In this document: one piece after another, positions 854 through 39,297 of the stretch
Numbering within the stretch: the first letter of the stretch is position 1
How the letters are laid out: the number at the start of each line of letters is the position of its first letter
Assembly (NCBI GenBank): GCA_964016885.1
Contig: OZ024743.1
Location: 302,436,001 to 302,500,000, forward strand
Direction: 5' to 3'
DNA length: 64,000 nt
From: Eledone cirrhosa
Taxonomy: Eukaryota
Translations under genes and position numbers: made by a program
The notes under the pieces: model-generated
The model's input: only the letters and a program-made list of their open reading frames with translations
Database searches by the model: none
Told to the model about the DNA's origin: nothing

Positions 854-1068
854 ATGGAGGAAATTTACCTAGGAGTTACTCGAAATCATAGGCAGAAAGC
901 AACAAGAAAAAAACATAATGCATTTCAGCCGACGCATTTACTTATACCACTGCCTATATACTCGTTCATTTATATATTTTTTTCTAATTTGAATGTGGTA
1001 AAATAAACTAATATTAGGGATGCTGGATGAATTATTATTGCTGTTTTTGCTTTCATATACACATCCTA

Positions 1069-2110
1069 GTAAAGATTTAATTAGTACCTTTGCTAATCTT
1101 AACCTTAAAATTACTATAGATACGAACCTTACTAATGCTAACTTTCTTGATATTAATCTTGATCTACTTACTGCCTCTTTTAAACCCTATCATAAACCTA
1201 ATGAACATCTTAGGTATATACACAAAGAGTCTTGCCATCCCCCTATAGTTTTTAATAATCTTATTCCTAACATTAGCCGTAGGATTTCTACCTTATCTTC
1301 GTCTATAGACATTTTTAATAAAGCCAGCCCTTATTATAATAAAGCCCTTAAGAACAGCGGTTTTACAGAAAATATTTCTTATTTACCTACTCCCCCCCCC
1401 CCCTAAAACTAACCATAATAACAGGAAAAGGAAGATTATTTGGTTCACACCCCCCTTCTCTCTAAATGTCAAAACTAATGTAGGAAGGAAATTCCTTGAA
1501 CTATTAGACAAACATTTTCCTCCTATTCATAGATATTATAAGATTTTTAATAGGAATGTAGTTAAGATCAGCTACTCTTGTTGCCCATCCATGAAGTCCA
1601 AAATCACCAGTTCAAACCGTACGAGGATAAATCCAGGATGCAGTTGCAAGAAGCCGGATGAATGCCCATTGCAGGGTAAATGTAACACAAAATCTGTCGT
1701 TTATGAGGCTAAGATAACGCCAGTTATCAACAACCAGCCAGCCAGAAGTGAGCGATATGTCGGTATGACCCAGGACAGGTTTAAAACCAGATTTTACTCA
1801 CATGTCGCTTCTTTTAAACACTCAGATAAACGAACATCAACGGCCCTCGCAAGTAAGGTATGGGATCTCAAGGATAGTAATATCCCGTACTCTATTGATT
1901 GGTCTATATTAGACCATTCGAGGGAGTACCAAAGGGGCACAAAGAATTGTTCTTTGTGTACCACAGAAAAGTATAGGATTTTGCTAAACTTGAGAGCCAC
2001 TTCCGCCGTGCCTTAACTCAAAGACTGAGATATTCAGATGCTGTCCTCATCTGAAATCGCATCTGATCTGTAACTGGATTGACACTCCTACGATAAATCA
2101 ACCGCCTTGA
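1069..2110 (+). mobile_element. 5'-truncated Penelope-like retrotransposon ORF remnant: RT thumb, linker and C-terminal GIY-YIG endonuclease (Hydra-clade-like), frameshifted
   Basis: NFLDINLDL..FKPYHKP..YIHKESCHPP; frameshift at poly-C ~1392-1403; IIWFTPPFS..KISYSC; CSC-x5-CPLQGKC; VVY..YVGMT..FKTRFYSH; CSLCTTEK; second frameshift ~2000 then LNSKTEIFRCCPH. Confidence 0.92.
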
Positions 2111-5206: not shown

Positions 5207-5266
5207 TTTCATTCTGAGGATTGAAAGCAAAACCTTTTGCTTTTAAGAAACCACTGGTAAATGGAA
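5207..5266 (+). ncRNA. Hammerhead ribozyme (type I)
   Basis: CATT-CTGAGGA-TTGAAAGCAAAA(cc)TTTTGCTTTTAA-GAAA-CC(act)GG-TA-AATG; GUA site. Confidence 0.85.
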
Positions 5267-34603: not shown

Positions 34604-35102
34604 GATTATGGAAGCAGAAAATTGCTTATTGTGATCCAGTTCGTAGTTAAGAAAGCAAGTTTCATGGACGGTTTCAACGTACGGTTAGAGTTAATTCCAC
34701 AAGTTTGTAAGAATTCCGTTCAATCTTGGGGTATAAAGTATAAAAGAGAAAACACAGGTAAGCATTAAGAGAGGATAAAATCCTTCTCTTAATGCTTACC
34801 TGTGTTGTCTCTTTTCTTGCTGCTACCAAGATGAAAACTACTATGAAATCCCACACTGAATTTTATACTTGAATTTTCAAATCTCAAATTTTAACTCTTC
34901 TTATTATTAATTTTTCTTAATATTAATCAACATTTGAAAAGATCGCTTTTGCAGTCCCATCGAAACCGGTCATTTTGTATACCCTTTATTCTTTCCTTAC
35001 CTCATAAAATTATATGTTTTTTCACAAAAAAGTATTCTATCTCTTATATATTCCATGTGCCATTACCAACCTCAATTTTCTATATATATATAGATATATA
35101 TA

Positions 35103-36372
<1,270 letters not shown>

Positions 36373-36430
36373 AATACATACATATAAATATATACATATA
36401 CATATATACATATATATATATATATACATA

Positions 36431-38252
36431 TATAGACATAGAATATTCGAAAATATTCTGTATGTTTATAATAAACATTTTGAAGACCTAATCGCTATAG
36501 AATAGAATACGTCACGTATTACAATTAGATTCTCGACAAAAGCAAGGGAAGTAATCTACGCGTTTCATTCTTGTTAGAAATCTTCAGGACTACATATCCA
36601 GTGCTTTTATCGAGAATGACACAGCTAGAGACTTATAGAATACTTAGCTGTGTACAGGAACTGGTTTGAAAGAGCGGTTGCCGGTCCGGCAGAAATTAGA
36701 AATTGGAATAAATGCTCTGAAATAGCGATATATATGTGAATATAGACATAGAATATTCGAAAATATTCTGTATGTTTATAATAAACATTTTGAAGACCTA
36801 ATCGCTATAGAATAGAATACGTCACGTATTACAATTAGATTCTCGACAAAAGCAAGGGAAGTAATCTACGCGTTTCATTCTTGTTAGAAATCTTCAGGAC
36901 TACATATCCAGTGCTTTTATCGAGAATGACACAGCTAGAGACTTATAGAATACTTAGCTGTGTACAGGAACTGGTTTGAAAGAGCGGTTGCCGGTCCGGC
37001 AGAAATTAGAAATTGGAATAAATGCTCTGAAATAGCGATATATATGTGAATATAGACATAGAATATTCGAAAATATTCTGTATGTTTATAATAAACATTT
37101 TGAAGACCTAATCGCTATAGAATAGAATACGTCACGTATTACAATTAGATTCTCGACAAAAGCAAGGGAAGTAATCTACGCGTTTCATTCTTGTTAGAAA
37201 TCTTTAGGACTACATATCCAGTGCTTTTATCGAGAATGACACAGCTAGAGACTTATAGAATACTTAGCTGTGTACAGGAACTGGTTTGAAAGAGCGGTTG
37301 CCGGTCCGGCAGAAATTAGAAATTGGAATAAATGCTCTGAAATAGCGATATATATGTGAATATAGACATAGAATATTCGAAAATATTCTGTATGTTTATA
37401 ATAAACATTTTGAAGACCTAATCGCTATAGAATAGAATACGTCACGTATTACAATTAGATTCTCGACAAAAGCAAGGGAAGTAATCTACGCGTTTCATTC
37501 TTGTTAGAAATCTTCAGGACTACATATCCAGTGCTTTTATCGAGAATGACACAGCTAGAGACTTATAGAATACTTAGCTGTGTACAGGAACTGGTTTGAA
37601 AGAGCGGTTGCCGGTCCGGCAGAAATTAGAAATTGGAATAAATGCTCTGAAATAGCGATCGCTCTTTCAAACCAGTTCCTGTACACAGCTAAGTATTCTA
37701 TAAGTCTCTAGCTGTGTCATTCTCGATAAAAGCACTGGATATGTAGTCCTGAAGATTTCTAACAAGAATGAAACGCGTAGATTACTTCCCATGCTTTTGT
37801 CGAGAATCTAATTGTAATACGTGACGTATTCTATTCTATAGCGATTAGGTCTTCAAAATGTTTATTATAAACATACAGAATATTTTCGAATATTCTATGT
37901 CTATATTCACATATATATCGCTATTTCAGAGCATTTATTCCAATTTCTAATTTCTGCCGGACCGGCAACCGCTCTTTCAAACCAGTTCCTGTACACAGCT
38001 AAGTATTCTATAAGTCTCTAGCTGTGTCATTCTCGATAAAAGCACTGGATATGTAGTCCTGAAGATTTCTAACAAGAATGAAACGCGTAGATTACTTCCC
38101 TTGCTTTTGTCGAGAATCTAATTGTAATACGTGACGTATTCTATTCTATAGCGATTAGGTCTTCAAAATGTTTATTATAAACATACAGAATATTTTCGAA
38201 TATTCTATGTCTATATTCACATATATATCGCTATTTCAGAGCATTTATTCCA

Positions 38253-38253
<1 letters not shown>
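36431..38253. repeat. 310-bp hammerhead-containing tandem repeat (about 4 direct units, then about 1.9 inverted units); retrozyme-like or PLE pLTR multimer
   Basis: Units start at 36431, 36741, 37051 and 37361; inversion at 37659/37660; HHRs on minus at 36551-36593, 36861-36903, 37171-37213, 37481-37523 and on plus at 37743-37785, 38053-38095. Confidence 0.95.
37743..37785 (+). ncRNA. Hammerhead ribozyme of the 310-bp unit (representative copy)
   Basis: GTAGTC-CTGAAGA-TTTCT(aaca)AGAAT-GAAA-CGCG-TA-GATTAC; palindromic stem III ACGCGT, GUA site. Confidence 0.88.
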
Positions 38254-38330
<77 letters not shown>

Positions 38331-39297
38331 ATATATATATATATATTATAATGAATTAACAGGATGCTGGACTTGTGTAAATCCTTGAAAGGTTTATTAT
38401 ACTATGATCATTTCAATGACCGGGTTCCGTATGAATCCGGTGATATCATCAGGTATTCGAAATATAATAAGTGAATGTAATAGATAAAATCCATGGGGCT
38501 GAAAATCAAAGACCCGAGGACAACCGCCATCCAGCATCTTTCACCTTTGCCGGTCGCCCTCGAATGAGCTTACAGTGTGCTACTACCGGTCAAATGAAGG
38601 AAAACAGAAAGGTATAGGAACATAATTCAGCGTTAATATCATGCCACAAGAAAAAAGAAAGAAAGAAAGAAAGAAGAGAGAAGAAGGGGGAAGGAAGAAG
38701 TAGAGAAGCCAGGGTTAATGTCAGCTATAAGAAGAAAGACAGAAAGAAAGAGGAGGAAATGTCGGTATTACAGTCAGGCCAGGAATGTCGCTAAAAAAAT
38801 GTTATTCTAAGGGTCCCGTATCTTAACAACTTCTACCTGTCAAATATAGGCAAACAAAGAGGGGAAGGAAGATAGTAAATGGTAATATCATGCCCCCAGG
38901 AGAAAGACAGAAAGAAGGGAGAAGAGAAGGAAGAAAAGGAATACGAAGAAAAGTCAGAAAGAAAACAAGAAGAAAGATAGAAAGAAAGAGGAAGAAAGGC
39001 CGAATACCTGATGATATCACCTGATTCATACGGAACCCGGTCATTGAAATGACCATAGTATAATAAACCCTTCAAGGATTTACACAAGTCCAGCCTCCTG
39101 TCATTTCATTATAATATTTAACTCCGTACTAGCACCACCAACTACAAAAACAAAGACGGTTGAACTGCTTTACGTTGAGTACTCTCCATATTATTACATT
39201 GATATTGACCATATAGAATTGACCAGGACTATCCAGTGGTGATCCTCAAACCTGAATAAATAATGTTCCTGAAATGTTGAGCACTTTCAAATGTAAT

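Follow-up and report, generated by a model that had tools for sequence, protein, structure and literature searches.

Organisation of the 310-bp locus

The stretch of DNA analysed here (the window) comprises 64,000 nucleotides of the genome of Eledone cirrhosa and carries, within 36430–38254, 5.89 units of a tandem repeat with a period of 310 bp. A preliminary description had taken this repeat for a single near-homogeneous array; we found instead that it inverts, and TRF splits it into two opposed arms, 3.97 units on the minus and 1.92 units on the plus strand, which are joined 5'-to-5' at 37659/37660 (Table 1). The other features then described were borne out: the period is exact over about six units, which differ from one another by just two substitutions (37205 and 37791), no long ORF is present, the longest stop-free frame spanning 59 codons, and the outward-facing 3' ends of both arms run into TA repeats, in agreement with an insertion into (TA)n. 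The unit is non-coding, with a GC content of 34.5%, and thus falls within the range of retrozymes (non-coding tandem units of 150–450 bp with GC below 50%). It lacks the ORF with RT and GIY-YIG domains that marks an autonomous EN+ PLE, and no LTR-like flanks were seen in the array flanks inspected. Positions within the unit are given below as phases, numbered from the predicted hammerhead cut.

Table 1. Features of the two-armed 310-bp array and its target in the window
Feature	Position	Strand	Remarks
(TA)n-type microsatellite	36373–36429		left target half
Left arm, 3.97 units	36430–37659	−	3' end phase 127 (site A), 5' end phase 138
Type I hammerhead motif 1	36551–36593	−	core intact
Hammerhead motif 2	36861–36903	−	core intact
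Hammerhead motif 3	37171–37213	−	G5 to A at 37205, predicted inactive
Hammerhead motif 4	37481–37523	−	core intact
5'-to-5' arm junction	37654–37663		at 37659/37660, within 10-bp palindrome
Right arm, 1.92 units	37660–38254	+	5' end phase 191, 3' end phase 165 (site B)
Hammerhead motif 5	37743–37785	+	predicted cut 37779/37780, after GUA
Hammerhead motif 6	38053–38095	+	predicted cut 38089/38090
'Tail', 38 nt	38217–38254	+	phases 128–165, outer end of right arm only
(TA)n microsatellite	38255–38350		right target half

Two further elements adjoin the insertion. A broken non-LTR reverse transcriptase fragment (35094–36371; RVT_1, E 2.7e-10) ends at the left TA tract, and directly after the right TA tract starts a second two-armed hammerhead element (38341–39260) with a different ribozyme, inverted 117-bp ends at 95% identity and a related copy at 41079–41886.

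The hammerhead motif

As previously described, the hammerhead motif occurs once in every unit, but its core is intact in just five of the six motifs of the window, because the substitution at 37205 turns the core CUGAAGA of one motif into CUAAAGA (G5), which we take to be a catalytic hammerhead position. Helix I comprises six pairs and helix II a U-U followed by three pairs and a six-base loop, the U-U becoming A-U in a natural allele at 287; the motif is predicted to be cut after the triplet GUA. Helix III is a six-base palindrome through which two motifs pair in a cofold, and this predicted pairing fits cleavage as dimers, as had been suggested. Exact patterns of 34–35 nt gave 9,953 and 14,181 matches in the genome (reversed controls, 0), and the circular monomer folds with a z of −4.4 against 100 dinucleotide shuffles, so that the motif is not a product of chance. 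The proposed check with Infernal and Rfam Hammerhead_1 failed: 0 matches reached the gathering score in the 64-kb window, Hammerhead_1 did not match the unit, the best ribozyme match was Hammerhead_HH9 (15.5 bits, E 0.76, gathering 52), and the unit thus lies outside the Rfam hammerhead families (RF00163, RF02275) at the gathering threshold. The ribozyme call therefore rests on the motif and on covariation, from which the unit is predicted to bear a self-cutting type I hammerhead.

The ribozyme is weak-looking, with the U-U at helix II and one or two pairs in helix III, and it is not visibly spared, 7 of 77 private changes falling within the motif, which makes up 14% of the unit. From a MAFFT alignment RNAalifold retrieved one hairpin and helix II but missed helix I owing to a one-column shift; the helix pairs given here were read from the motifs rather than from that alignment. 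Five further type I hammerhead-like motifs, belonging to other families, lie in the window at 5260, 6107, 6971, 33031 and 55113, and dozens more were seen in other loci retrieved from the genome.

Family size and sampled loci

With a 35-nt pattern allowing A or G, at least 16,026 units were counted in the genome (exact matches 14,181; control 0), covering about 5 Mb or 0.17% of the genome. We inspected 57 loci, namely the window, 35 others among the 150 matches listed, 13 position-ordered loci and 8 more. They comprise 45 complete two-arm loci, 11 single-armed ones and one (L048) that is broken by a gap, has a diverged separate copy and was excluded from the pairing counts. Every inversion is head-to-head, and arms reach 27.3 units, with cDNA lengths from 0.2 to 27 units. 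When six PLE proteins of this genome were used as queries, a PLE ORF continuous with the 5' end of an arm was found at none of the 57 loci; PLE fragments lie 200–800 bp from some arrays, past TA tracts, and at L200 across a gap and in opposite orientation. Private divergence amounts to 0.085% (77 changes in 90.6 kb), by which measure the family is very young. The expectation of dispersed, young, non-coding copies without a PLE ORF was thus supported, and the family consists, like retrozymes, of dispersed multi-copy arrays without an encoded RT.

Paired 3' ends and arm junctions

The 3' ends of the arms form two classes, A at 126–139 and B at 160–172 nt after the predicted cut, each blurred by a scatter that we attribute to TA microhomology. 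One A and one B end are present in 45 of 45 complete two-arm loci (29/29 in the sample of 36 loci, 9/9 in the 13 position-ordered loci and 7/7 in the 8 more), with a P of 3.4e-13 under random pairing and of 1.1e-4 for the 16 position-ordered loci alone. The family combines an inverted, 5'-truncated head-to-head copy with a one-sided tail of 30–40 bp and an AT-rich or (TA)n target; the 3' flanks are TA repeats or AT-rich, where target duplications cannot be read. Since the inverted 5' copy and the one-sided tail are marks of PLEs, mobilisation by a PLE is well supported and, in our judgement, highly probable. The case for a PLE-type enzyme, already made in the preliminary description, gains from the fixed position of both 3' ends and from the inversion of one arm.

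The longer arm carries the A end in 12 and the B end in 17 of 29 loci, arm length being independent of class (p 0.29). Given that the outer ends are fixed and that neither arm is consistently the longer, both 3' ends are best read as starts, and we consider it probable that both are start sites of cDNA. The 5' ends, by comparison, are uniform in phase (Rayleigh p 0.45, n = 64). None of the 64, nor any of 36, lies within 5 nt of the predicted cut, which is no significant depletion, about 3 of the 100 being expected there. At 29 junctions the arms overlap by 1–8 nt in 22 cases, are blunt in 3 and have inserts in 4; phase 250, in the unit's own hairpin, hosts 4 of 36 5' ends. Two loci with different haplotypes, L195 and L201, have an identical junction (phases 250 and 13) via the unit's own basal hairpin, and at L039:4680-4720 and L226:4455-4530 the arm junctions contain small pieces of the unit, duplicated or additional, of the kind that slippage during joining would leave.

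Sister families

Two sister families, R320 and R316, were found in the flanks and share with the 310-bp unit the region about 60–245 nt after the cut. Their hammerhead sequences are different, and compensatory changes preserve the same helices I–III. The C3-G8 pair of the core is replaced in R320 by U3-A8, a covariation that natural hammerheads also show (PMC3088659). R320, with 1,368 candidate places (L058:7800-8660, L162–L191) and a 12-nt palindromic helix III, scores 27.3 bits (E 0.0035) in Rfam. The two ends are A and B in 14 of its 17 two-arm loci, a count made with a query biased to one B end; L167 has B and B, and two loci have a short arm ending elsewhere. One R320 array (L163) alternates as a-b-a-b, a and b differing at 8–9 places and like copies at 1–2, which fits either a dimer circle as template or a two-unit duplication of DNA. 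R316 is an older sister family with 1,650 candidate places (L132–L161) and ends at 141 and about 166.

Array haplotypes and the A>G excess

Among the 36 loci with at least three full units (305 units in all) we distinguished nine haplotypes, each fixed in every unit of its array, and none of the 36 arrays is mixed at the diagnostic sites. Of 27 informative loci, 26 have the same haplotype in both arms, whereas the gapped L048 does not; additional fixed types, among them the indels 51del2 and 3insC, likewise occur in both arms. In 6 of the 36 loci a private variant recurs in two units of one array, so that some block duplication at the DNA level has to be assumed. The fixed-haplotype pattern needs either a monomer bottleneck or fast homogenisation, and the latter is disfavoured because private changes stay unhomogenised. 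The rolling-circle copying postulated earlier gains indirect support from the single haplotype per array and from the lack of 5' ends at the cut. That the template was an RNA circle we hold to be fairly likely, and it is the weakest step of our proposal; arms of the same haplotype could also derive from two RNAs of one source locus.

A 35-nt stretch containing 10 A and 11 T was compared across the units: 1,845 of them have a sense A>G and 213 a sense T>C change, an 8.7-fold excess of A>G on the ribozyme strand in which the counts are of units and not of events. The A>G changes at 20, 259 and 276 fall at A-U pairs, and those at 20 and 276 recur on several backgrounds. This excess is an RNA-strand signal, but it does not distinguish between editing, recombination and selection for G-U pairs; selection for G-U-compatible changes, for one, would also yield it. 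Strand bias was also compared among the private changes, which include 6 T>C against 1 A>G (p 0.14) and 11 G>A against 5 C>T (p 0.04 without correction); it was not used as evidence.

Search for a PLE partner

A young PLE family of the window (1002–2016; also L096–L101) has open ORFs of 714–715 aa, often in inverted pairs, and a hammerhead about 225 nt before the ORF. We take the PLE families of the window to be Hydra-like (the family with the 714-aa ORF) and Neptune-like; Pfam named none of their proteins except one, with RVT_1 below the cut-off. The RTs of these families had been put forward as the partner of the 310-bp unit, a proposal that our comparisons did not support: neither the young family (query 1309–2013; 30 + 6 loci) nor a second, GIY-YIG family (47334–47600; 30 loci) shares sequence with the unit beyond TA-like or sister-fragment matches. 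Sequence shared with the pLTR of an autonomous partner was likewise not found in the array flanks.

Among sequencing runs, 20 runs from 17 studies, under 18 organism labels, hold 59–85% of the unit's words. Run X1 contains the unit and the PLE at high depth, and a loose-end motif from it had 0 matches in the genome. Runs X4 and X18 lacked the PLE and each yielded a single low-depth contig of the unit, of 340 nt (30 more than the period) and 280 nt, respectively, whose alleles are frequent in X1; run X3 contained identical low-depth PLE scraps, and the 1.9 Gb of the raw run X24 gave 0 reads. These runs are better explained by traces of a high-copy repeat carried over than by horizontal transfer.

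Comparison with known systems

The 310-bp family resembles the metazoan non-LTR retrozymes, which are AT-rich, non-coding tandem units of 150–450 bp, scattered in thousands of copies and each bearing a single type I hammerhead (PMC7229834; bioRxiv 10.64898/2026.07.22.740005), and its motif combines features of two axolotl motifs, the single-pair helix III with palindromic tetraloop of Amex1 and the U-U at the base of helix II of Amex2 (PMC7229834). Circles of animal retrozymes have been reported and their copying by PLEs into tandem cDNA proposed (PMC7229834, PMC7761336); retrozymes have further been linked to pLTRs, with mobilisation by PLEs again proposed (Li, Clavereau and Pollet 2026, bioRxiv 10.64898/2026.07.22.740005), and of the nine Xenopus retrozyme dimers in the same source, eight failed to cleave. 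Metazoan retrozymes are described as plain tandem repeats for which circles and cleavage have been demonstrated, whereas the present family, for which both are predicted, consists mostly of two opposed arms with A and B ends. Inverted arms or tails of retrozymes are absent from the main texts of PMC7229834, PMC7761336 and bioRxiv 10.64898/2026.07.22.740005, as far as considered here, and from the other open literature searched.

The family also resembles PLEs. Poseidon PAc of Anolis and EN+ PLEs also have a head-to-head, inverted 5'-truncated copy, a one-sided tail of 30–40 bp and AT-rich or (TA)n targets (PMC11167929, PMC8557442, PMC3846280), the inverted copy and the tail at one end being typical marks of PLE insertion (PMC8557442, PMC3846280), and EN+ PLEs share with our family two internal RT start sites downstream of the hammerhead (PMC11167929). 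In vitro, PAc acts on both strands of AT-rich DNA, which it cleaves and extends; its two internal starts bound the tail, and its start site does not differ between strands; it is a predicted dimer, its main substrate is unprocessed RNA, and hammerhead cleavage is unneeded (all PMC11167929). MRC1 of Chlamys is, like our family, a non-autonomous PLE derivative with multicopy head-to-tail insertions (PMC8557442), but Chlamys elements occur in green algae, mostly lack canonical hammerheads and share their 3' ends with known autonomous families (PMC8557442). Unlike EN+ PLEs, the 310-bp family has no ORF, has arms of up to 27 identical monomers and has no sequence link to the PLE families checked; the pairing of one A with one B end, moreover, has been counted for it (45 of 45).

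L1 twin priming likewise starts cDNA from both ends of the target and joins an inverted arm by microhomology. In L1, however, the two arms copy separate stretches of a single linear RNA, and the position of the second start varies; in the 310-bp family both starts lie at fixed sites, and each arm is a multimer whose sequence overlaps that of the other. The retrozyme class and its link to Penelope are already published; the paired A/B footprint was not found in the literature searched.

Proposed insertion mechanism

Taken together, we favour, with somewhat better than even confidence, the reading that the 310-bp family is a young non-coding hammerhead repeat, likely written by a PLE enzyme primed on both cut DNA ends, probably round a circular monomer RNA. 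Tandem copies would be transcribed, and the hammerheads, paired as dimers through helix III, would release 310-nt monomers to be ligated into circles, as in known retrozymes. A PLE protein, perhaps a dimer, may then bind the conserved structured region 60–200 nt after the cut and nick both strands of (TA)n, whereupon one DNA end would prime cDNA at site A and the other at site B, a step of which the paired ends were observed. Each cDNA would stop at random and the two be joined through short overlaps, the lengths and junctions being those recorded above. A more specific version, which we advance tentatively and at slightly less than even confidence, is that a PLE dimer provides two RTs, one per strand of the cut TA repeat and each with its own start site, which roll simultaneously round a single hammerhead circle that is sometimes A-to-I-edited.

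The same twin priming by a PLE might have used long, linear, uncleaved multimers, with uniformity arising from the source arrays and from DNA duplication and with circles as by-products or absent. The preference of PAc for unprocessed RNA and the continued insertion of its hammerhead mutants (PMC11167929) would agree with this, as would the repeated private variants in six arrays and the weak-looking ribozyme. Linear multimers, however, predict that a new variant is at first present in one of n units and that such patterns pass from locus to locus, whereas the arrays show nine array-wide haplotypes, none mixed at the diagnostic sites, and persisting private changes; arms of up to 27.3 units also speak against such templates, and we regard this course as unlikely.

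Still less probable is single priming, in which the inverted arm would arise by fold-back of the cDNA or by self-priming at a palindrome, and the tail by endonuclease trimming of the second end. Palindromes at junctions have led others to propose self-priming (PMC3846280), and resolution by the endonuclease has been suggested as the source of the tail (PMC8557442); the 10-bp palindrome at the window junction and the 5' ends at the phase 250 hairpin could be so explained. A fold-back copy, however, cannot outgrow its template, and yet either arm may be the longer; both outer ends are site-specific, PAc starts at both sites on both strands (PMC11167929), and most of the junctions are short overlaps.

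A further reading, very improbable in our view, takes the arrays for truncated multimers of a pLTR that belongs to an ORF-bearing PLE, so that the unit would not be an independent element: Xenopus retrozymes are related to pLTRs (bioRxiv 10.64898/2026.07.22.740005), the end structure is PLE-like and 57 loci were inspected of a family of 16,026 units, but none of these has a PLE ORF continuous with the 5' end of an arm, the unit runs straight into the next unit up to 27 times, and the closed monomer layout is common to the three sister families. An origin of the unit from a pLTR is nevertheless likely, and is compatible with priming on both DNA ends by a PLE enzyme, the reading that we prefer. 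As for a fold-back introduced by the assembly, or a plain satellite dispersed through DNA recombination, the palindromic junction is outweighed by 45 loci that share the architecture with different junctions and unequal arms, by the fixed 3' ends in (TA)n and by the strand-biased A>G, and both are extremely improbable.

How retrozymes enter genomes and how PLEs form inverted ends and tails have both been called open (PMC8557442, PMC7229834, bioRxiv 10.64898/2026.07.22.740005), and a 310-nt substrate with two mapped start sites makes both mechanistic questions testable, the predictions being paired priming at A and B, one template for both arms and multimers made from a circle. If the favoured reading is true, a PLE enzyme would be a rolling-circle writer that primes on both strands, which would be of interest for retroelement biology and for tools of RNA-templated insertion. 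Should the version with a PLE dimer and an edited circle also hold, it would account for the tail and inversion across PLEs and amount to direct evidence, from a genome, that rolling-circle retrotransposition takes place in an animal, with editing leading to heritable ribozyme variants.

Other hammerhead repeats and U6 genes

An internal U6-type promoter was also considered for the 310-bp unit and rejected, since the unit did not match either of two U6 upstream regions (of 20 U6 loci) better than shuffles do (81 and 170–175 of 200). Hammerhead repeats of 466 and about 500 bp occur at L062:400-2500 and L040:8300-10000, and both carry a 9-nt element also present about 76 nt upstream of two U6 genes; against the flank of one of these genes the 466-bp unit outscores all 200 shuffles, and against that of the other 180–185 of 200. 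By their sequence, these two repeats possibly contain an internal snRNA-type promoter that is absent from the 310-bp unit. A tandem cluster with more than 30 U6 matches, at a spacing of about 1.8 kb, lies at G000:C19:31780605-31840331.
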